Assembly: GCF_044704955.1 (NCBI RefSeq)
Contig: NC_091985.1
Span: forward strand, 120,218,001-120,282,000
DNA from: Pristiophorus japonicus
Lineage: Eukaryota
Direction of reading: 5' to 3'
Length of the DNA: 64,000 bases
Shown here piece by piece: positions 12,406 through 62,131 of this stretch (position 1 is the stretch's first letter; each line of letters begins with the position of its first letter). A program made the position numbers and the translations under genes. The notes under the pieces are model-generated. The model saw nothing but the letters and a program-made list of their open reading frames with translations. It had not been told where the DNA came from and ran no database searches.

Positions 12406-14994
12406 CTTTAAAGAAAACAAGGTCAGATCTCATCAGCACACAAGGCAAATAAAGCAACCAGATCCGAAAGCAAACATACTTCAACATCTGCACCACAGCA
12501 AATAAACAAAAATGAATTCAGATGTGTAAGAAAGATGTTAAGATGCAATACCCTACAGTTAACTACTGGCTGTTGTGTTAAAATCTACATTTGGCTCATG
12601 AGTCACATCTCCAAAGTTACAGGTCACAGTAAATTTGAAAGTTGGAAATCTATCAATTGATTACCAACGTAGTTAAATCTGCACTTTCAACAATAACCTG
12701 ATGGTGTTCCTCTGGCGAGCAACAGATCTTTTTCCTTTGGAGAACGTGTTTTACAGCTCATGCTCTTATTAGGAGTACGGGAAACTGCGCAGTCACAAAA
12801 GCTGCAACCACTTGAACTTAACATTTGTTAGTTTAACGATGAACTTTATAATCGGGATTAATTATGGAGAACTGCAGCTTTAACAGATTAGGTACAGATT
12901 CCCCCTTCTTTTCCTTTGAGTAGTTCTGGAGCAAAGCTCCTTTTTTGGGAAATACTTAATGTGCCACTCATGCCAACATATTACTGCCGTTTCCATAAAA
13001 TACCAGAATTTATAGTATACAATTCAGAGAAAAACTGCTTTAATATTATTTTCCAATAAAAGCATTTTGTAACAAATATATACGGTCACAAAATACTTGT
13101 TACCACAACAAACAAAATGGTGTGGTCCCCACACAGACTCTATTAATTTACTCCCACTCGAGTTCTCGACACATGTTTCTTCTTTGCTTAAGATTTTGCT
13201 TTCTCCCCTCATTTAACTTGCGATCTCCACCCTTCTAACATCAGAGATTCAAAGTTAGAATATGGCCACAGCAGTCTATCTTAATGCATCCTTTAATGTA
13301 CAATCCTCAAGGAGGCGGACTGATTGATCATAAATCGGCAGATTACTGGAGAAAACAGTGTCGGGATGAACACAGAGCCATACACTTTAGTTTTTTTGTA
13401 CAAATCTGGCAGCACAACTTTTATGGGATAACAAAAAAAGTAAAGAAAAGCAGAACAACTGGGAATCAGCAATGTGATTTTTTTTTTTTTAAAAAGCAGG
13501 ATGTGAATGCATTCCAGTAATATATAACTACAGCCGCCTGGGTAACCACAGGGATCAGGTTTAGAGTGGAGTGCTAAACTGGGCCGGCATATTATGTTGA
13601 GTGAGAATAAGACCTAGGGGAGTGGGAGTGAGGGCGGGGGGTGAGCAGTGATGGGGGCCGGGGGAGCAGTGAAAGGTGGCCGGGGGGAGCACAGGCGAGG
13701 CCAAAGGAAAGCGAAGGCGGGGGGGGGGTGCAGAAAGAGCGAGGGAGGGAGGTCACAGTGCAAGATAAACAGTGACAGAGAGAGGGAGACAAAAAAATTC
13801 AAAGCAGCAGATTATTAGAAATGGTTACGGGGTACGAGATTTAAAAAAAAAAATTCCGGGCAATGGCATGGAAATAACACACACAGATATGGGGGCAATT
13901 ACAGGTATATATCCAGCCTAGAATTTATCCCAAGTCTAAAACCAGCAAGAGGTCTATACATCTGTAATCCATCACTGGACAGGCTGCTGTTTTGCAAAAT
14001 ATAGATGCAAGATACTTTTCCGAGTTTACAATCCGAAGCCAGCACATCACAGTAAATTGACTGCCCAGAGGTGAATGGGCATTGGTTATGATGCAAAAGA
14101 TCAGTGGCCATTGTCAACAGTAGAAAAAGACACAATCTGCAAGTTCTTGCATAATAGTACACAGTTGACAGGAATGTGCAGGAGATTTAGTGTGGATAAA
14201 GCAGCTTGTACATTGAACAATTTAACGTAGGCATTTGAATAGTAGATTCTAAATTGTACATAACTGTAAATAGTATCTAATAGGGTTCCTCCTTGTCCCC
14301 GATTTCATCCACCAAACTTTCCTATCCACTGAAACTCCCTAATTGTTACCCCCCACCCCCGCTTTCAAAAATCTCAAAACTTCTTTTACCCTACCATAAC
14401 CCTCCTCATTTTCATTTTTTCTTTCCCCCTCCTGGTCAGTGCTCATAAACAAAGCGTTGAGACTTTGTCCACACACAAGGGGGTCAAGTTTCGGGCTGCG
14501 CGACGCCCGTTTTTCGCGCCTAAAAGTGCGACAGAAAAATACCTCTTAATTCTCCGGCTCCTTGCTGGTCCCTGGGAGCTTGGCGCGGTGCGCACACAGC
14601 AGCAGGGGGCGGAGCCACAGAGTCGCACCGATTCTGCAAGTGGAGGGGGGCGGGGCTATGTTAAATGAGGCAACATCGTGCCGGCAGCCCTGCGCGTGCG
14701 CATTGGAGCATGCGCAGTAGCCCAGAAACATTGGCACTCGGCCATTTCTTTTTTAAAGGGACTTAAAGAAAAGTGTTGATTTGTCTCGTGGACCCCTGGA
14801 AAGGCTTGGGATTGAATTTTGGTGAATTTTTTGTGTCTGAAGGAGTGCTTTTAGCAGCATTGTTGAAGAAATCACCTGCTGAAATCAGTGAGTGCTGCTT
14901 TTCACTGCTAAACTTCCAGAACAGGTGCTGCATAGGTGCATGCAAAATAAGGGCTGTGTGTTTTGAAAAATAAGAGCGTCAATTCAATACAGCA

Positions 14995-16557
14995 ATGGAA
15001 CAATGTCCACCAAGAACAAAGAATTTCTTGCATGAGGCAGTGGAGATATTAGTCAACGTAATTGAGCAGAGATGGCAGGAGCTCGATCAGCAACAGAGGT
15101 CGCATAAAAGTGCCACCTAAAGAAAAGAAGAAACGTTGGAACCAAGTTGCTGAAGATTACTGCGCAGTGGTGCATACCATGAGATCTGGAAGCCAGTGTA
15201 AAAAGAAATGGCACGACCTTGGTCAAGTAGTTAGTATAAGTAATACTTTCCATTTTTAATGTAATCGTAATTGTAATGTGACTATCTATATGTCACACCC
15301 TGCAGAAAGACACACTCTGTAAAAAGTTATATTTTACTCTTTGCAGAAGAAATTGGCCCACAACAAAAGGGAAGCAACTCAAACAGGAGGAGCCACGCCC
15401 AATCTGCATCCACTGACACCCTTCGAATAGAGAGTAGCTGCTATGATGAGTCGTACATGGAGAAAAGCAATCAGTACAGCACAAGCTGGGCCTGCACGCG
15501 AGGAAGAGGGCAAGTCCTGAAAATGCATCGTGGCCCTTCAAATCAACCTGCTACCTGGCCTGCTATGTGTGAGAGTACTCATGCCACCCATTCTGCCCCC
15601 TCCCTTGCTGTTAAACATTTGACTGTTCTGATGTATTTTGCAGAACATGACGATGATGATGATGATGTTGTTGCCGCTGCCAACCCTGAGGATACAGAAC
15701 AAGAACCAGTACAACCAGATGCGGACGATCCAGACTGGATGATGGCGGCGATGACTGAAATGTCTACAGGGGAGAGCTTCCAAATTAATTAATGTTTATG
15801 AGCCCCCATTAAGGGGCATCAGAGTTTCAACCTCTTGCAAAGGTTCTGGTTTCACCTTCCATGGTTTTGATTCCGATGTTGTGGGTCCCAGTGGTGCTGC
15901 TGGTATAATGCAGCAGTTTACAGCCAGTGCACTACTGTCCGAGCCTGCGCCTCCCACTCACATAGGTTCCGGTTCCACCTTCCATGGTTTTGATTCCGAT
16001 GTTGCGGGTTCCAGTGGTGCTGGTGATATAATGGAGCAGTTTACACCCATTCACCCACCATCCCAGCCCACAGCTCACACTCGAGTGCTGTCGTCTGAAA
16101 CACCAAGCGCCCCACCGTCCCAGCCCGCGCCTCTCTCTCTAGTACTGCCATCTGCAAGACCGAGCGCCCCACCCCGCGCCTCTCTCTCTAGTACTGCCGT
16201 CTGGAACACAGAGCATCCCACTGTACCAGCCCGCGCCTCCCTGCGTAGTGGTGCCACGAGGCAGACCAAGGCAGAGGAGAAGGAGATTGGAGACACGCTC
16301 TCCTGAGATGCAGCGTGCAACAGATGCGGCTCAGGTTGTAGCATTGGGTATGGAGACCAATGAGCTTACCCGATCACTCATCGGTGGCGTCAGTGCAGTG
16401 GGTGACGGTGACGGTCCTGATGGGAGAAATAGCAGTAATGACACGGGAACTTAGGGAGCGAATGTCTGAGGGAGTGCAATCGACGGCACAGGCCCTCATG
16501 GAGGTAGCTGCTGCAATAAGTGCACACAGCCCCTCCAATCAAATGACACCCCCATGA
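14995..16557 (+). pseudogene. Harbinger Myb/SANT (trihelix, NAIF1-like) DNA-binding gene, three exons, disabled
   Basis: Exon 1 (14995-15235) reads MEQCPPRTKNFLHEAVEILVNVIEQRW../..KKRWNQVAE...RSGSQCKKKWHDL. Exon 2 (15347-15509) reads [15 protein letters not shown]. Exon 3 starts at 15644 and is acidic and Pro-rich. It has frameshifts, a stop, and non-canonical donors ataagt and gcaagt. Confidence 0.85.
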
Positions 16558-17039
16558 AGAAGTGGACATTCACTGAGATGTGGATGAGAGATGGTTGCAG
16601 CCTTTCTTTGCTGCTTTTGTTCTTGTTCTTGATGTAGCTGTAGTAACATTTTTCAAATTGAAATTGTTTTGTAAGTTTTGTAACTTTACAACTTATAAGT
16701 GATCTTCGGGTTTTTAAGTGATCTTATAGTGTAAATGCTCTCATTTTGTACCTTATTTAATTTTGCATCTAAAAAGTGATCTTGAAGTTTAAGTGACCTT
16801 AAGTGTAAGATTTTTCACATTGAATTGTTTTGTAACTTTACAAGTTTATAAGTGATCTTCAAGAGTCATATTAAAAAGTAAAGTTTGATACAACAAATAT
16901 TTTATTACAGCGACGTTAACTTTTCAATAAAATATTTTTTCATTAAAACTGTTTCATGTTCCATTAACAACACAACGTAGGAACAACTGCAAAGAATAAA
17001 CATGTCCATGCGCAACAGTGGTCGCAGAGCCCTCAGGCA

Positions 17040-18262
17040 TCAGTAGTTGAAGCATTCACAGATGAGCTGCTGGCGCAAGGCTCGAGCAATCGTTAAAGGG
17101 GCACGATGGACGTCCTTCCTCCGACCTCGTGCTCCGGCATCAGACACTTGCATGCTTTCCTGATCGTCATCATCATCCACATCCTGCTCTTCCATAATAT
17201 TATCATCATGCATTGGACCCTCACGTCGGTCTTCTGGTTCCATTACCAGCTCCTGCTGCCTCATGATGGCTAAGTTATGGAGCATTCAGCACACAATAGT
17301 GAAGTGACTGACAATCTGAGGAGAGTATTGCAAGTGGCCTCCGGAATGGTCCAGGCATTGGAAACGCTGTTTCAATATGCCAATGGTCCTCTCAATGATG
17401 CTGCGCGTCGCAATGTGCGCCATGTTGTATTGACGGTCAGCTTCTGTCCGTGTCACGCGTAGGGGCGTCATGAGCCAAGTGGTCAGGCCGTACCCTTTGT
17501 CTCCCAGTAGCCAGCCCTGTCCTTCTGGCTGCTGCTCAAACATATCAAATATAACGCTGTCGCGTAGGATGAACGCATCACGAGGCTGCCAGGGTATCCC
17601 GCATCGACTGACATGATGCGCTGCTTGTCGTCACACACGAGCTGCACATTGATAGAGTGGAAACCTTTCCTATTCCTGTACTGTTTGGAATCCTCCACAG
17701 GTGCTTGCAAGGCTATGTGGGTACAATCAATGCAGCCCTGTACCTTTGGGAAGCCGGCAATCCTTAATCCTTAAGAAGCCCACAGCCCTTTGATGGATCG
17801 CTTGTGCAGTCATTGGGAAATTGATAAAGTCATTCATCTGTGCTACAGTGCAGCCGTGACCTGGTAAACGCAGGCATGTATTGCATGTTGAGAGATGGCA
17901 CACACATCTCCAGTTGTAGCCTGAAATGATCCCGAGGCATAGAAGACAAGTGCAGCTGTTACCTGCACTTCAACTGACAAGGCAGTTGGCGTTCTGCTTC
18001 TGGGCTGCAAATCTGCTCTCAGCATATCACAGATCTCAGCGACAACTTCTCTGCGGAAACGCAGCCTTTTGACACAATCAGCCTTGCTCATGTCCAGGTA
18101 CGAGCGCCTGGCTCGATATTGCCGACGTGGGTAAGGTCTCCTGCCCATCAGCCTATGGGTTATGACGTTCCTGGTGCGGTGAGCTCTAATCAATTCTCTC
18201 CTATGCAGTGAATTGATGGCGAACCATTGCATAATCCGTGGTGTTGACAATGCAGCACACAT
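17040..18262 (-). pseudogene. Harbinger (HARBI1-like) DDE transposase, disabled
   Basis: Motifs LSVEVQVTAALVFYASGSFQ, GFPKVQGCIDCTH, YRNRKGFHSINVQLVCD, WLLGDKGY, IIERTIGILKQRF and MLHN. Frameshifts at ~17843, ~17765 (7-nt duplication) and ~17583, and a stop at 17286. Confidence 0.95.
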
Positions 18263-19130
18263 TCTGCAAATTTAAGTTTCAACCTGGCTATCTGGCTGCC
18301 TCTCCCTGTCCCTGGCCAAATGGCCTGTCTCCCTCGCAGCTCGAAGGCTGCTTGCTGTGTCTTCGGCAGCAGTCAGCCATTGCCGACGCCCCTATCCCGT
18401 GGCCGAATGGCCTCAGTTACCCTCACAGCTCGAAGGCTGCTTGCTTGCTGTGTCTTCGGCTGCCGTCGAGTCATTGATGCCGCCCCTGTCTCCTACATGG
18501 AAGGCCTGCCTGAAGCACCGCAGCTCGAAGGCTGCTGCTGCTTCTTACAGGCAGGAATATTCAATATTTTGTCTTTGCTTTGTTTATAATTTTTTAGTCA
18601 GGATGGCTCTTTATTTGTATAAGACAGACTGTTGAATGCTTGTTGAATGTAATTACTTCCCTTCCCCCCCTCCCCTCCCCCCACCCTCGTTCCCTACGCC
18701 TGATTTGTAACCTACGCCTGATTTGTAAAGTGCAGGCAAGATTTTTCTGAGCATACAAAAATCTACACTTACTCCATTCTAAGTTAGTTTGGAGTATGTT
18801 TTCACTGCCTAAACTTTCAAAACAGGCGTAAGTGGCCGGACACGCCCCCTTTTCAACCAAAATTAAACTGTTCTAACTGACTTTGAACTGGAGCAAACTA
18901 AATGCCGAGAATTGCAATTTCTAAGATACTCCATTCTATACCAGTTGCTCCAAAAAAATAGGAGCAACTCAGGCCGAAACTTGACCCCACGGTGTACTAT
19001 GAAAATGCAAGTTGCTGTTAGTACATTGAACGATGGTGCTGTTGATGCTCTGGATAGTTTTATTTTTCATTACTAAGATTAAATATACCCTCAGCCTCCT
19101 CTGTTCCAAGGAAAACCTCAGCCTATCCAA

Positions 19131-19583: not shown

Positions 19584-20830
19584 GGGCCCAAGTTTCGGGT
19601 GGAGTTGCTCCTAGTTTTTTGGAGCAACTAGGTTAGTTTGGAGTATGTTAGAAACTGCAATTCTCGGATAATAGTTTGCTCCAGTTCTAGTGAGTTAGTT
19701 TAGGTTGGCTTTAAGTAAAGTACTTTTTTTCAAAAGGGGGTGTGTCCAGCCACTCAGGCCTGTTTTGCAAGTTTCGGCAGTGAAACCTTACTCCATCCTA
19801 AGTTAGTTTGTTGTAAGTATCCACTTTTGTAAGTTCTGAAAAACCTTACCTAGAGTTAAGTTTAGTGCAGGCACAGCCAGAGACGGGGAGTGGGAAGCAT
19901 TAAACACAAAGGACACATCAACATCACAACAGGGGGGGGGGGGAGGGAAGTTAGAGGATTTTCCATAAACACCTTCATAACAACATTAAAGAAGCAAAAT
20001 ACATTTAAGGCAGTAAGCACAAAACAAAGCAGTACATTTACGAAGCACAAAAAGTAATAAGCAATTAATTAATAAAAAATAGAAGGAACCCTGCACCTAA
20101 AGCTCCAAGACCAAAGTAATAAGCAACCAATCAATAAAAAATAAAAAAATAGAAGTCCTACCTTTATGTGAAGGGAAGGTGTTTCTGTCAGTGTCTCTCT
20201 CTCTCTATCTGACAGTGAGGGGTAGGGGTGTGTGTGGGGGGGTGGGGAGGAGGGGGTGCGCATGGGGAGGGGCGCGCGTGGGGGGTGGGGGTGCGTGTGG
20301 GGGGGGGAAATGTGGCTGAACGCGGGGGGGGGGTGGATGTGGGGGGCTGAACGTGGCGGGGACGGGGACGGGGGGGGGGGGGAAGAGGCAACCCTGCTCT
20401 CTCCTCCGGCCCTTCAATCATTTCGAGTGCCCCCCAACCCACATTCCTCCATCCCTTGCCTCGCTCCTCCAGCCCGTGCTATTGTTCTCCCACCGATCAC
20501 CTCCCCAGTGCCCTCTTTCCACGCTCCTCCATCCCTCCCCGGTACCCACACCATTCTGAAACAGACTGGTGAAAAACGCCCTGCTGAGCCATTGTGCAGG
20601 CGCGCACATTGCAACGCGCAACGAAGCCGGCAGTCTTCAGACACGCAGGGGCTTAGCCCCGCCCACCTGCAGCTTGCTCCGCCCCAGGAAGACTGCGCTG
20701 CGGCGTGCCACGCCACAGTCCAGGAGGACCGGAGAATTGCAGCAGAATATTCCGGCGCACCTTCGAGCCCAGGCAGGTCACATAAGTCTCGGAGGTGCGC
20801 CGTTTTCACCTGATGCCGAAACTTGGGCCC
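19584..20830 (-). mobile_element. Non-autonomous Harbinger element
   Basis: Perfect 15-bp TIR gggcccaagtttcgg and TSD att/att. Subterminal sequence is homologous to 18700-18988 in reverse. Confidence 0.93.
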
Positions 20831-22320
20831 ATTGTGTGTTCCCTTGCCTTGTTGCCCCATCCCAAATGCATTACCTCACACTTCTCCGGATTGAATTTCA
20901 TTAGCCATTTTTCTGCCCACCTGACCAGTTCATCAGTATCTTCCTGCAGCCTAGAGCTTTCCTCCTCACTGTCAACCACACGGCCAATTTTTGTATCATC
21001 TGCAAATTTCTTCATCATGCCCCCTACATTTAAGTCTAAATCATTAATATATACGGCAAAATGTAAGGGACCGACTACTGAGCTTTGTGGAACTCCACTG
21101 GAAACAGCCTTCGTCACAAAAACTCCCCTCACCATTACCCTTTGCTTCATGCCACTGAGCCAATTTTGGATCTAATTTGCCACTCTCTCTCAGATCCCAT
21201 GGGCTTTTACTTTTTTTTGATTAGCCTAACATGTGGGACCTCGTCAAAAGCTTTGCTAAAATCCATGTAAACTACATCAAATGCATTGCCCTCATTAACC
21301 CTCCTCAAAGAATTCAATCAAGTTAGTCGGACACGACGTTCCCTTAACAAATCCATGCTGACTGTCCTTGATTAATCTGTTGTCTTTCTAAATGAAGGTT
21401 TATACTGCCCCTCAGAATGGATTCCAGTAATTTGCCCACCACCGAGGTTAAACTAACTGGCTTGTAATTGCTCGGTTTATCCCTTCCTCCTATTTTGAAC
21501 AATGGTACAATGTAAGCAGTTCTCCTATCCTCTGGCACAACCTCTGTAGTCAGGGAGGATTGAAAAATTATGGTCAGAGCCTCTGCAATTTCCTCCCTTG
21601 CTTATTTTAATAGCCTCGGATATATTTCATCCTGTCCTGGTGATTTATCTACCTTCAAGGATGCTAACCCCTTAATACTTCCTCTCTTACAATGTTTATC
21701 CCGTCCAATATTTCACTCTCTTCCTCCTGAACTTCAACGTCGGCATCGTCCCTCTCTCTTTTGTGAAGACAGCTGCAAAGTATTCATTTAGTAACTTACC
21801 CGCATCCTCCGCCTCCACAAATAGATAACCATTTTGGTGCCTAATAGGCCCTACTCTTTCTTTAGTTATCCTCTTCCTCTTTATGTCATTGTAAAACAGC
21901 TTGGGGTTTTCTTTGATTCTACTTGCTACTATTTTTCATGCCCTCTTTTTGCTTTCCTAATTTCCTTCTTAATTTCACCCCTGCACTTTCTATACTCTTC
22001 TGGCTTTCTGCAGTATTGAGCTCACGATATCCGATATAGACTTCCCTACCATTTCAAGAATAATTAGGTACCATGTGTGGACTATGCTGAATGTAGGCTG
22101 GGTACAACATGCTGATCAGTTGAAGGACACCACTGACGTATGGTTAGTAGAGATAAAATCCAAACAGATCAAAAAAACTTCTAATCTGCAAGGGACAAAG
22201 TTAAAAAGTCATTAACTAAATGATACTACGATACTTAAATTTATCATGTTATAGGAACCACTAACACAGACGGTAGAATATACCCCAATAGTGCTCTTTG
22301 CACATGGAGCACGGTTTGGT

Positions 22321-28303: not shown

Positions 28304-29639
28304 GGGCCCAAGTTTCGAGCCGCGCCTAGAACGGCGCAGTCCCGACCTGGACGCCCGTTTTTCGCGCCATAAAGTGCGCCTAAAAAAACCTTCGAGATTC
28401 TCCAGCTCCCTGCAGGTCGTTTGCAGCTCGGCGCAGCGCAGCACAAGCTGTAGGGGGCGGAGCCAGGTCCCTGCGCTGAAAACAGTGCCGGGACCTCTGC
28501 ACATGTGCGCTACAGTGGGCGCGCATGTGCAGTAGCTCCAAGCGCCCAAAACTGTGTGGGAGGGGCCCAAAGCACGTAGCCCCTAGCCCTGGCCGAATGG
28601 CCTCAATGGGGCTGCGTGTATAAGGCTCCTCCCACGCCCAACATCTGCTTCTTCCCGACCTGACTCGACTCCTGCTTTCCGCCCCTGGACCGGACCCGAC
28701 CCCCCGGACAGGACCCGACTCCTGCTGCACCCCGCCCCCCCGGACCGGACCTGACACCGACACCCCCCCGACTGGACCCAACCTGACCTCCCTCCCTCCC
28801 ACCGACCTGACCTCCCTCTCCCCGACCCGACCTCCCTCCCACCACCCCCCCCGACCCGCGCTCCCCCCGACCCGACCCAACGCCACCTACCTGTAAAATC
28901 TGGTGCTGGGAACGGGCCCTGCCCGAAGTCTCGGGCCCGTTCAGCCTCCCTCCCCCTTCCCCACCCCCCATCTCCTTTCCCCCCCTCCCCCTTCCCTCCC
29001 TCTGCTCCCCCCCTCCTCGCTGTCAGAAACACAGACACTGACAGACAGAGAATGAGAGACACACACAGACAGACAGAGAGATAGAGACACTGACAGAGAC
29101 ACACTGGAGGGGTGGGGGGGCATCCCAGCACGCTGTTGGAGGGCTCCCGGTGCTGCAGTCGGTAAGTAGAAAATGTTTTATTTATTGATTTAAAAAAATT
29201 ATTTATTAATTTTTTTTGATGATTTATTGATGTTTTTATCATTTATTGTTGATGATGGCTCTTTATTTGTAAAACTGAAGTGTTTAATGTTTGTAAACTT
29301 CCCTTTAAACCCTCCCCCCCCCCCCATTCCCTACGCCTGATTTGTAACCTGCGCCTGATTTTCTAAAGTGTAGACAAGGTTTTTTCGAGCGTACAAAAAT
29401 CTTCACTTACTCCATTCTAAGTTAGTTTGGAGTAAGTTTTCACTGACGAAACTTTGAAAACAGGCGTAAGTGGCCAGACACGCCCCCTTTTGAAAAAGAA
29501 ATTCTGTTCCAAAGTGAAACTGTTCTAACTGACTAGAACTGGAGCAAACTAAATGGCGAGAATTCCGATTTCTAAGATACTCCGTTCTACACCAGTTGCT
29601 CCTAAAAATCAGGAGCAAATCATGTCAAAACTTGGGGCC
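28304..29639 (+). mobile_element. Non-autonomous Harbinger element
   Basis: TIR gggcccaagttt / aaacttggggcc and TSD aaa/aaa. Both ends are homologous to the ends of 14480-18988. Confidence 0.92.
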
Positions 29640-29940
29640 AAAGTATGCCAACTTTCTTCGAGACTCCAACAACTTCCACTAATAAACACTGATAAAGATG
29701 TGACCAATAGAAGGCGGCATACCCACCCACCCACGAGCTGATACTTTTAAAACCCAGGAGGAGATTCACTGAAATCTGCAACTGCTCCCCCAGAAACAAA
29801 ATTTCAGATGGAGAGGGCCAGTGATAGTGGCAGTCCAACAAATCACGGTCAAGGAATTTTAGAACACTCTGGCAACAGGTTAAAGCTCCTCATAAAACAC
29901 CACTGAGAATTTCATTTGATGCTATAAGTACGAATCGCAG

Positions 29941-32673: not shown

Positions 32674-34548
32674 GGGCCCAAGTTTCCACACGCGCCTAGA
32701 ACGGCGCAGTCCCGACCTGAACACCCGTTTATCGCGCCACAAAGTGCGCCTAAAAAAATCCTCGGTATTCTCTACCTACTTGCAGGTCCTCTGGCCCTCG
32801 GCGCAGCCAGCACGAGCTGTGGGGGGGCGGAGACAGGTCCCTGCGCTGAAAACAGTGCCGGGACCTCTGCACATGCGCGCTACAGTGGGCACGCAAGTGC
32901 AGTAGCTCCAGGCGCCGAACTGTGTGGGAGGGGCCCGAAGCACGCAGCCCCTAGCCCTGGCTGAATGGCCTCACTGGGGCTGCGTGAATAAGGCTCCTCC
33001 CACGGCCAGCTCCTGCTTCCCCCCCCCCCCCCGACCAGACCCGACACCCGCTCCCCCCCCTGCCTCCGGACCAGACCCGACACTCGCTCCCCGCACCCCC
33101 CCCCCCCCCCTCCGGACCAGACCCGACACTCGCTCTCCGCACCCCCCCCCCGCCTCCGGACCAGACCCGACACTCGCTCCCCGCACCCCCCCCCCGCCTC
33201 CGGACCAGACCCGACAGTCGCTACCCGCACCCCCCCCCCCCTCCTCCGGACCAGACCCGACACCCGCTCCCCGCACCCCCCCCCCGCCTCCGGACCAGAC
33301 CCGACACTTGCTCCCCGCACCCCCCCCCCGCCTCCGGACCGGACCAGACCCGACACTCGCTCCCCGCACCCCCCCCCCGCCTCCGGACCAGACCCGACAC
33401 CCCCCCCCCCGCCTCCGGACCAGACCCGACACTCGCTCCCCGCACCCCCCCCCCGCCTCCGGACCAGACCCGACACCCGCTCCCCCCGCCTCCGGACCAG
33501 ACCCGACACTCGCTCCCCGCACCCCCCCCCCGCCTCCGGACCAGACCCGACACCCGCTCCCCCCTGCCTCCGGACCAGACCCGACACTCGCTCCCCGCAC
33601 CCCCCCCCCCCCGCCTCCGGACCAGACCCGACACCCGCTCCCCGCCAGCCCCCCCGCCTCCGGACCAGACCCGACACTTGCTCCCCCCTGCCTCCGGACC
33701 AGACCCGACACCCGCTCCCCGCCAGCCCCCCCGCCTCCGGACCAGACCCGACACTTGCTCCCCGCACCCCCCCCCCCCTCCACTGGACCCGACCCGACTC
33801 CCGCTCCCGGACTGGATCCGACCTGACTTCTCTCTCTCTCTCCCTCCCTCCCTCCCTCCTGCCCTCTCCCTCTCCCTTCCCCCCCCTCTCTCTCCCTCCC
33901 TCCCTTCCCCCCCCTCCTCCGCCCCCCCCTCCTCCTCCTCCTCCTCCTCCTCCTCCTCCTCTCCCTCCTCCCCCCCCGACCCAACCCAACGCCACCTACC
34001 TGTAAATCTGGTGCTGGGGACGGGCCCTGTCTGAAGTCTCGGGCCGGCCCGTTCAGCCTTCGGTCCCGAAAGGCCTGCCTGAAGCACTTTCACACAGGTA
34101 GGAAGATGGTTTATTTAATCTTTTCTTGGCTTATAAATGTTTATTCAGGTTGGATTTATTTGTATAATATTTGTATAAGCATAAATAAGGATTTATTATA
34201 GAATTTAATGACTTCCCTTCCCCCCCCCCCACCTCGTTCTGGACGCCTAATTTGTAACCTGCGCCTGATTTTTTAATGTGTACAACAGGTTTTTTCAGTT
34301 CGACAAAAATCTTCACTGGCTCCATTCTACTTTAGTTTGGAGTACGTTTTCACTGTGGAAACTTTCAAATCAGGCGTCAGTGGCCGGACACGCCCCCTTT
34401 TGAAGAAAAAATTCTGTTCCAAAGTAGAACTGTTCTACCTGACTAGAACTGCAGAAAAAAAATGTGGAGAATTGCGATTTCCAAGATAGTCCGTTCTCCA
34501 CCAGTTGCTCCTAAAAATCAGGCGCAAATCATGTGGAAACTTGGGCCC
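32674..34548 (+). mobile_element. Non-autonomous Harbinger element with internal minisatellite
   Basis: Perfect 17-bp TIR gggcccaagtttccaca and TSD att/att. Confidence 0.95.
33030..33790. repeat. C-rich minisatellite, about 18 units of ~31-47 bp
   Basis: Core cctccggaccagacccgacacYcgctcccc(gca) followed by a C-run of variable length. Confidence 0.95.
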
Positions 34549-35059
34549 ATTGTATGGATGGAATGCTAATAGCATTGCCGCTCGAGTTCAATTTACCACA
34601 GATAAACATTCAGCCAAGAGCAAATTGACACGATTCCTGCACTACTGGGCAATCAATCAGTATTATGTCCTGACAAAGAGATTGAGCTGTCCCCACCCAG
34701 TGTGTCGACATACCAGAGCACTGTTCTGTTAGGTCGTTTGTTCAGAGGTGCAGATTTTAACCTGCACCAGAGCCTGAAATTGGACTCGAGCCAACCACAC
34801 CAGCCAAAGTTCAAGCTTGCTGATGTGCCAAGTGCATTTCGTCAATCAACACTGTATCCGCACCAGTTCGATGCAAGCTCCTCCCACAGCAAGTATCCAT
34901 AATCAACATTTGTGAAGGTTGCAGAGAAATCCTCTGAAAATGTTCTGCTCCAGGGACAACTACACCAGCTGAGAGATATGTTGCGAAACTATTGATGTAA
35001 AGGCATGGAAGAGAAAGTGAGTTAAATCCAATGGCATTGATTATTTAAAAACAATTAAT

Positions 35060-59740: not shown

Positions 59741-60100
59741 AGATATTAGAACAGATAAGCTTGGTTAAAGAGGCAAATTCTAAGCAGCGTCTTAAAAGGA
59801 GAAAGGTGGAGTTTTCTGGAGGGAATTCCAGAGCTTAGGGCCTAGGCAGATGAAGGCACAGCCGCCAATGGTGGGGCGATTGTGCTTCAAAAAGGAATCT
59901 TCATTGGATAATGCTCACAAGTGAGAACCTAGAGCAATTTTCCTTTTTCAATTTTGAGATATTGACATTAATTGTTCTCACCCAATATGTTGCTATGGCC
60001 AAAGCTGGCTACCTTAACATTGGGGACGAAACTGGATTCCTTTATAATCTGTATGGCATATGTACAAGATGTACAGCATTTTTACTAATAGAGTCATCTT

Positions 60101-61309
60101 GAGGTCAAGTTTCGGCCTGAGTTGCTCCTACTTATTTGGAGCAACTAGTTTAGAATGGAGTATCTTAGAAATTGCAGTTCTAGTGAGTTAGAACAGTTTC
60201 ATTTTAGAACAGAATTTTTTTCAAAAAAGGGGCATGTCCGGCCACTTACGCCTGTTTTGCAAGTTTAGGCAGCGAAAACTTACTCCAAACTAACTTAGAA
60301 TGGAGTAAGTGTAGATTTTTGTATGCTCAGAAAAACCTTGCCTACACTTGGAAATCAGGCGTATGGAACGAAAGATGGGGTGGGGGGGGGGGGGGGGGGG
60401 AGAGGAGAAGAGAGGGGGGTTTACAAACATTAAACACTTCACTTTTACAAATAAAGAGTCATCATCAATAATAAATGATAAATAAACCAATAAATCAATG
60501 CAAATAAATTAAAAAATTAAAAATTAAATAAAAAAAATCACTCAATAAATAATTTTTTTTTTTCTACTCATCTACTGCAGCACCAGGGAAAAGAGGAGGG
60601 GGGGGGAAAGAGAGAAGAGATAATGATGGGTGCGGGGGGAAGGGAAGAGAAGATGATAATGGGGGGGGGGGAAAGAGAAGAGAAGAGAAGATGATGGGGA
60701 GGGGGGAGGAAGAGAAGAGAAGAAGATTGGGGGGGGGGTAGAAGAGAAGAAGATGGGGGAGGGGTGGGAGGGGAGAGAGAAGAGAAGAAGATGGGGGGGG
60801 GGGGGGAGAAAGAGATAAGAGAAGAGAAGACGACGGGGGAATGGGGAGAGAGAAGAGAAAAGAGAGGAAGATAGGGGAGGGGGAAGAGAGAAGAAGAAGC
60901 CGGGCCCCGCCGAGGACTTCGGGCAGGGCCCGCACGCAGCCGATTCTGGGCTGCCGCCGACTCTTTGGGTGGGGCCCGCCCCCAGCGTGAGGCCAGGTGG
61001 GTGTGCCCCGCCGTCGAGGTAAGATGCGCAGGCCACTCGGGCAGGGATAGGGGCGACGTCCCTTCGGCCTGGGATAGGGTCGTCGCCCCGAAGACAGGAC
61101 GCCGGCAGATACTGCGCACGCGCACAGCTGCCGGCACTGTTTTTGGCGCAGGGCTGTAGCTCCGCCCCCAGCAGCTCCTGGCCGAGGTGGAATTGGGCCT
61201 ACAGCTATCGGAGAATTGAGGGGCAAGTTATTGCCGCAATTTTTGTTCGATAAATTAGGCGGGCCTCTCCGATGTGCACCGTTCTAGCGGGCAGCCGAAA
61301 CTTGACCCC
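60101..61309 (-). mobile_element. Non-autonomous Harbinger element
   Basis: TIR gaggtcaagtttcgg / ccgaaacttgacccc, the same TIR type as the full-length copy. TSD ctt/ctt. Purine-rich interior at 60585-60900. Confidence 0.93.
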
Positions 61310-62131
61310 CTTATGTGGTTATTCACCTCCCCAGCAAGTTCGAGAAGACAATGTGCATTGCAAATAATCAGCGAACAGTGGTCCAAGATGACTGATCGAC
61401 CTTTGCTTATTCTGAACTTGATGGTCTTGTGGTAGTAGAGAAAACAAATCTTTTCAAAGCCCAACAATGAAATGGAAAAAACACCTGAGCAATCCTACTC
61501 AAAAGGATGCAGCTTTCCTTCTATCTCTGTCACCTTGATGTAAACTAGTCGTCTCTACCTATTTTCACAACGTCAGGTAAAGTTCAGCTGAACAAAACTA
61601 AAGCCTGCTGCGATTTAACATCTTGGGGTGTTCACTCTGTGGGGTTATTGAAACAATCCAGCACTCTTTGGCAAGGCGTAACTTACAAATACTGACCAAA
61701 TCATTTTGAAATTATGGAGATGACAAGTTGAATATTCATGAATGGGCAGCACTCCCCTGCAGCTAATTTGGTTACACTTACAATCACAAAGGTTGACACA
61801 ATTAGTATAATCACAGTGACTACACTCCCAAAGTACTTAATTGGCTGTAAAAGGCTTTGAGACGTCCGGTGGTCATGAAAGGCACGATATAAATCCAAGT
61901 CTTTCTTTTCTTTCTTTCAACTGAGGTATGGTGGCTGAATGGTGCCATGCGCAGTTATTCAGCACAGTATCAAATCCAAAATTCCTTGTTTTTTTAAATT
62001 AAATTACTGTACAAGTTGATCAGATATATATGTACAATTACATGGTTTTCACAAAATGAGGGCAATAATGCAAATAAATGTTAGTAACAAAATTCTTTAC
62101 TCAAATTTATTTACACGGGAGAAGTGAAATC

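Follow-up and report, generated by a model that had tools for sequence, protein, structure and literature searches.

Does a mobile DNA transposon carry a docking site for a host chromatin reader? The question is raised by a 64,000-nucleotide stretch of the Pristiophorus japonicus genome (contig NC_091985.1, positions 120,218,001 to 120,282,000; hereafter the window), in which a Harbinger copy encodes the short motif FxGF twice in the tail of its Myb-like partner protein. LEDGF and HDGFL2 read H3K36 methylation. According to the accessible text of PMC9987994, FxGF is present in, and required by, every known partner of the LEDGF and HRP2 domains, with both phenylalanines filling a pocket. The same text gives the TND-interacting motif three parts: a helix, which is obligate; a linker that is acidic and 8-16 residues long; and FxGF, which is optional. 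The Myb partner of Harbinger elements binds the element ends and takes the transposase into the nucleus, according to the available parts of PMC9710019, PMC9179366, and PMC9392472. The portions of the literature on Harbinger Myb proteins that we consulted do not say what the partner's long tail does apart from carrying the transposase.

The Harbinger copy, its family, and the doubled motif

The element (14480..18988, 4509 bp, strand not assigned) is a full-length, two-gene copy in which both genes are broken. With a DDE transposase, a Myb/SANT partner, short terminal inverted repeats (TIRs), and a 3-bp target-site duplication, it is a PIF/Harbinger transposon. Its 15-nt TIRs lie at 14480..14494 (plus strand) and 18974..18988 (minus strand) and are flanked by AAG and ACG, which differ by one mismatch. 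TIRs of 15 nt were found at both ends in 15 of the 21 family copies examined, including the window copy. The 3-bp duplication was exact in 6 of 15 family copies, had one mismatch in 5 (the window copy among them), and was worse in 4. These imperfect flanks in 9 of 15 copies (L174-L193) occur despite the copies being only ~5% diverged.

The transposase gene (17043..18271, minus strand) matches Pfam DDE_Tnp_4 (E = 1.6e-16), and in the family majority its frame runs for 410 residues from stop to stop and contains no FxGF. The Myb-partner gene is on the plus strand. Exon 1 (14995..15235) encodes the Myb/SANT trihelix (Pfam Myb_DNA-bind_5; the corresponding exon in family copy L005 gives E = 6.7e-10 and 39.2 bits against a cut-off of 21.7); exon 2 (15347..15509) has a GC donor in the window copy; and exon 3 (15644..16557) encodes an acidic tract, the duplicated motif, Pro/Ser repeats, a basic patch, and a long C-terminal helix.

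A DNA search of the genome (5.9 Gb) gave 2804 first-look candidates, 40 of which were scored, and 30 copies were taken for the counts of the window's family (family A). The window copy is ~5% off the family majority. In the majority of the 30 copies, the three exons form a single open frame that contains both motifs. Seven of the 30 are open throughout; in five of the seven, the splice sites are canonical and both motifs are present. The Myb gene is intact in 5 of 30 copies (L006, L009, L012, L014, and L024) and the transposase frame is free of stops in 2 of 20 (L187 and L189), which suggests that the family was active recently. Database gene models splice the Myb-partner exons identically. 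Contigs from two of four public runs contain the exon 1-2 joint with GT..AG ends (the kind of contig is unrecorded, and this supports the exon structure only), and two of the four have exon 3 letters directly after exon 2 as loose ends (again of unrecorded kind).

The window copy is an ordinary dead Harbinger and makes no motif-bearing protein. Its Myb exon 1 has a 2-nt deletion near 15087 and a dead donor (AT at 15236), exon 2 has a stop codon at 15428-15430, and exon 3 has frameshifts at 15783-15786 (a 4-nt insertion ahead of motif 1), near 16172, and near 16407. The transposase has three frameshifts (near 17584, 17759-17765, and 17843). So, the original claim that the motifs are in frame holds for the family majority and fails for the window copy, where the exon 1 deletion, the AT donor, the exon 2 stop, and the 4-nt insertion cut them off from the Myb domain.

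The duplication itself is as first described: two FHGF motifs lie in the same frame at 15857..15868 and 15980..15991 (plus strand), within an in-frame 123-nt duplication. The two 41-codon units are at 15842..15964 and 15965..16087 (plus strand; Tandem Repeats Finder reports period 123 and 2.0 copies at 15841-16082). Motif 1 is intact in 29 of the 30 family copies, motif 2 in 25, and both together in 24. The two units agree at 54 of their first 58 nt, which include the motif, and at 44 of the remaining 65. Each motif is followed by the position of an AGPS element (15881..15892 and 16004-16015, plus strand; VGPS and AGSS in the window copy), and repeat finding places 57-nt tandem repeats coding for Pro/Ser at 16054..16239 (plus strand). 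Some members of the same family have a single motif (P0136, P0140, and P0148). The six frames of the window contain 14 FxGF, and we followed up only the FHGF pair because it is inside the element's gene. Several Myb loci have a nearby FNGF on the other strand, which we discarded because it has nothing to do with the tail. The earlier description of the tail as disordered agrees with an AlphaFold2 model of exon 3 from an intact copy (pLDDT below 50 at residues 42-134 and 140-192, and 31-40 around both motifs).

Within family A, we compared amino-acid changes in 28 copies with expected rates based on introns (L013 and L027 were dropped, as their exon 1 is foreign). With both motifs pooled, the F, G, and F positions had 4 changes against 10.5 expected (P ~0.02, in one of 13 tests, on related copies picked by similarity). 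The x position is neutral (5 observed, 4.8 expected), and the linkers likewise are not depleted. Motif 2 taken alone showed no significant depletion (P = 0.23); out of 281 comparable positions, the two motifs have ranks 20 and 92. Depletion ratios were 0.59 for the Myb exon, 0.59 for exon 2, and 0.68 for the C-terminal part; nearby, DSDVA had 15 changes against 33.7 expected (0.45) and GPS had 8 against 14.7 (0.54). We count the apparent constraint on F/G/F within the family as modest evidence.

The motif across Harbinger lineages

A profile search gave 150 representatives, of which 17 contain FxGF (2 of the 17 outside the tail). Among the top 19 representatives, 11 have the motif, where shuffles would give 0.35, and among the remaining 131 there are 6, where 0.78 would be expected. 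The form FHGF characterizes subfamilies A, B, and S, between which the upstream flanks are 8-33% identical. In sister subfamily B, 25 of 30 loci have FxGF; this is a hand count from a direct listing, which we used because repeats misalign the rows of B (12 of 23) and S (7 of 12). Also in subfamily B (L144-L173), a 57-nt coding repeat multiplies AGPS up to about six times and FxGF is single. Separately, the motif has been multiplied with a 19-residue period in the proteins P0006 and P0131.

More distant lineages also carry the motif. In lineage D, where it follows an acidic run, the first F is kept in 19 of 19 copies and the last in 17 of 18, with x being E, V, D, L, or Q. In lineage F193, where it follows SSEDD, the first F is kept in 20 of 20 and the last in 19 of 20, with x being P, L, R, or Q. 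Lineage E reads FLGF after SSTES, and exact FxGF is present in 16 of 17 copies (L224 and L232, which are duplicate places, are left out). This tally is a selected one, as D, E, and F193 were chosen because their first match had FxGF. Over the lineages, x is H, E, D, V, L, P, Q, or R, and about a quarter of the D and F193 copies have S, D, E, or R for the central G. Such a free x between a fixed F and a fixed F is the signature that a linear motif would leave.

How diverged are these proteins otherwise? The Myb regions are identical at 48 of 129 positions between A and D, 32 of 112 between A and E, and 45 of 124 between D and E (about 29-37%, as measured among A, D, and E). Over the 24 residues upstream of the motif, ungapped identity among A, D, E, and F193 is 0-25%. 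In tails of this kind, a stretch of 10 residues would contain FxGF by chance with a probability of ~2e-4. The 16 upstream residues have a net charge of −4 in D, −3 in F193, and −2 in E, with 2, 3, and 1 CK2-type sites, respectively. The motif always sits just ahead of an (A/P)G(P/T)S element, which is followed by a basic patch and the C-terminal helix. The expectation that FxGF would be conserved against diverging flanks is thus borne out for A, D, E, and F193. Judging from these alignments, FxGF in Harbinger Myb tails is very likely under selection, because it is kept at the same place in four lineages with x free and flanks diverged, and with an acidic Ser/Thr run in three of them.

Other lineages have an altered motif or none. 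In two lineages that are sisters to the window's clade, the sequence is F(L/H/Q)GV (V in 22 of 25 aligned copies, out of 37) and F(R/P/H)GC (C in 14 of 15). The motif is absent from all 12 aligned copies of the RAPRF group (out of 41), as it is from the group's majority line, and from all 13 aligned copies of the P0156 family (out of 15); P0243 likewise lacks it. These three motif-less lineages amplified all the same, and (A/P)G(P/T/M)S is kept in lineages without FxGF. In a tree of the Myb region (67 rows, 112 columns), D joins the motif-less P0243 (99/88) and E joins the motif-less P0156 (100/98). Therefore, the motif either is ancestral with several losses or was gained more than once.

All eight of the tail-motif proteins with a named source are from Pristiophorus japonicus, and the motif is absent from all eight related proteins of other sharks and rays. 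The database proteins closest to the element also bear this species name, and one of them matches the genome at 99%. A search for relatives of the protein P0142 found four, at least three of them from Pristiophorus japonicus, and an atlas search with P0142 returned Myb families only.

We also noticed an alternating hydrophobic stretch 20-30 residues before the motif (at 15773-15800 in the window, and in B, RAKRF, RAPRF, and E loci). It takes forms such as FQINVYE, VLLTLEE, MVTLELE, LDFTLA, and VEVEIDLV and is kept even in lineages without FxGF. Going by its sequence, this stretch may be a second docking element, and it may resemble SUMO- or HP1-binding motifs.

Candidate partners of the motif

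We consider the motif to be real and conserved and its partner to be a testable guess. Our guess, with a probability of about 0.4, is that FHGF in the Myb-partner tail mimics the host TND-interacting motif, docks on LEDGF or HDGFL2, and so tethers the complex to transcribed chromatin. In detail, the tail FxGF would dock on the integrase-binding domain of LEDGF or HDGFL2; the docked complex of Myb partner and transposase would be held at H3K36-methylated, transcribed chromatin; and this tethering would affect where the complex cuts or inserts. The window family would have a derived, acid-poor version of the motif, and, speculatively, doubling might offset weaker binding. That Harbinger goes further and uses LEDGF/HDGFL2 to steer cut-and-paste insertion into gene bodies, with the motif gained, lost, weakened, and doubled as a tunable module, seems unlikely to us.

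The original prediction of a LEDGF-type motif survives in part. The open frame in the family, the conservation, and the acidic Ser/Thr context in D, E, and F193 are in its favor; the missing helix and linker in the window family, the V or C that replaces the last F in two sister lineages, the dispensability of the motif in abundant lineages, and its confinement to one species among the proteins with a named source are against it. The window family has the FxGF core and the disordered setting. As the original prediction noted, the residues just ahead of the motif are not acidic; the 16 residues before motif 1 include one D or E, have a net charge of 0, and contain no CK2-type site. Nor was a helix found ahead of such a linker in the AlphaFold2 model of exon 3, where the nearest predicted helix (residues 31-41) ends about 30 residues before motif 1, whose first F is residue 71; the stretch before motif 2 is Pro-rich, and a helix that is induced by binding is possible. 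Because the linker and helix are absent, we do not file the window family as a member of the TND-interacting motifs. An acidic linker is present in D and F193 and partly in E.

The established partners of LEDGF/HRP2 (KMT2A, JPO2, IWS1, MED1, CDC7-ASK, and DPF3a), as far as PMC9987994 describes them in its accessible part, likewise have FxGF in a disordered region, and their acidic Ser/Thr run with CK2-type sites is matched by lineages D, E, and F193. In contrast to these partners, the window family lacks a helix 8-16 residues upstream and an acidic linker, and its motif is encoded by a transposon, tandem, and putative. The acids that follow FxGF had been seen as a departure from the canonical motif. 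We consider them normal, because the region of Drosophila JIL-1 that binds the LEDGF domain of JASPer contains DFxGFDE (10.1101/624023, available portion). There, too, acids come after FxGF and the surroundings are rich in Pro and acids, and FHGFD of the window and DFEGFD of lineage D fit this pattern. Unlike the transposon protein, JIL-1 is a kinase of the host whose binding has been mapped, and the window has T rather than D before the F.

The host encodes LEDGF with an intact-looking domain (P0008), and a second locus also matches this domain. When this shark domain (P0008 360-448) was modeled together with a family A peptide of 52 residues, in a run without alignments, the score was 0.01, which speaks neither for nor against binding. 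The lineage D peptide had no matches among PDB sequences at E 10.

Lentiviral integrase binds LEDGF through a folded domain, and its targeting is proven, whereas here a linear motif on an accessory protein has a putative role. The proposed outcome, an element tethered to H3K36-methylated gene bodies, would be shared with the lentiviral tethering by LEDGF/HRP2 that is outlined in the accessible text of PMC9987994. PogZ, which stems from a DNA transposon, binds the LEDGF domain (PMC7835958, in part; PDB 6emp), but it is a domesticated host gene of a different superfamily, not a protein from a mobile family. Harbinger3_DR with its Myb-like protein and the domesticated NAIF1 and MSANTD1-4, in the sections of PMC9710019, PMC9179366, and PMC9392472 that we consulted, are alike in having two genes, a trihelix partner, short TIRs, and 3-bp duplications; those sections differ from our account in that their descriptions include no host-docking motif in the tail.

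Our literature search (subscription papers and Repbase reports were outside it) found no paper on an FxGF motif in a Harbinger Myb tail, and none that pairs a Harbinger Myb-like protein with LEDGF or a TND-interacting motif with a transposon. Neither did it find tethering of a DNA transposon by PogZ and LEDGF, and the papers that link Harbinger with gene bodies and H3K36me3 were on plants. For FxGF together with a transposase it yielded a review of MLL1, and among the papers listed a single abstract mentions Harbinger's Myb-like protein along with a chromatin complex. The conserved tail motif therefore appears to be undescribed. If the LEDGF-type reading is true, a mobile DNA transposon would have a host tether, convergent with that of lentiviruses (HIV), and this would hint at the origin of PogZ-like host partners. 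A portable targeting peptide would also be of interest to transposon-vector work. With the natural series that exists in this genome (acidic FxGF, acid-poor FHGF, doubled, FxGV, FxGC, and none), binding and targeting can be tested directly.

It is quite possible, although in our estimation not probable, that a selected block, F-x-G-(F/V/C)-x2-4-(E/D)-x-(A/P)-G-(P/T)-S, docks some other partner, such as the transposase, or USP7 via AGPS, and that any resemblance to LEDGF partners is coincidental. Lineages whose last F has become V or C still have F-x-G with its free x, the (A/P)G(P/T/M)S element is kept in lineages that lack FxGF and is also the part that is repeated in subfamily B (P0005), and the DSDVA and GPS positions of family A are constrained as well. 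AGPS fits the P/A/ExxS pattern of USP7 TRAF ligands (PMC6203733, accessible part), but this pattern is very degenerate and too common to be diagnostic, and USP7 does not call for the acidic phosphorylatable run that three lineages pair with FxGF.

Docking on LEDGF or HDGFL2 might instead serve protein stability, chromatin retention, or anti-silencing, and not the choice of insertion site. JIL-1 is unstable when it lacks JASPer, its LEDGF-domain partner (10.1101/624023, in part), and plant Harbinger-derived Myb proteins work in chromatin-modifying complexes (PMC9392472 and PMC9710019, in part). This explanation shares every weakness in binding of the tethering model, and we consider it improbable.

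Finally, we give little credence to the idea that the motif of the window family is a relic of an older function, doubled by neutral slippage in a readily duplicating tail: the tail does have 57-nt repeats, the family has single-motif members, the acidic linker is gone, and motif 2 alone lacks significant constraint, but FHGF is identical in A, B, and S despite their diverged flanks, the two repeat units resemble each other much more over the half that bears the motif than over the rest, and the pooled constraint is significant at ~0.02.

Insertion sites, host genes, and neighboring elements

If the tail does tether the complex to transcribed chromatin by way of LEDGF or HDGFL2, the placement of copies might bear its mark. 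By hand counts over the placed contigs, contigs C16 and higher hold 10 of 40 rows for family A, 5 of 94 for D, 2 of 70 for F193, and 9 of 149 for the motif-less P0156 family. Comparing A, D, and F193 with P0156 in these hand counts, we found no pattern linked to the motif. In the search for a host gene, none of 101 candidate exon frames matched Pfam, and a crude exon scan gave nothing clear. The intronic location that had been given for the insertions is thus a putative one.

Many Pristiophorus japonicus gene models (among them P0127, P0130, P0132, P0133, P0135, P0136, and P0138) join host-like exons to Harbinger Myb exons 2-3; these fusions are either real exonization or an annotation artifact. 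At L141 and L142 (on C14 and C2073), the Myb matches lie in long open frames of 949 and 660 amino acids whose first 40 residues are identical. Such frames could possibly belong to a domesticated or fused gene.

The window had been said to hold six Harbinger-type insertions. We saw fewer: the element and four shorter elements with related TIRs, at 19584-20832, 28304-29641, 32674-34550, and 60100-61312. Their subterminal DNA is 73-80% identical, and they match neither gene of the Harbinger copy, so by their ends they are likely to be non-autonomous relatives. A C-rich minisatellite lies at 33019-33808, inside the element at 32674-34550, and a shorter form of it is present inside the element at 28304-29641.
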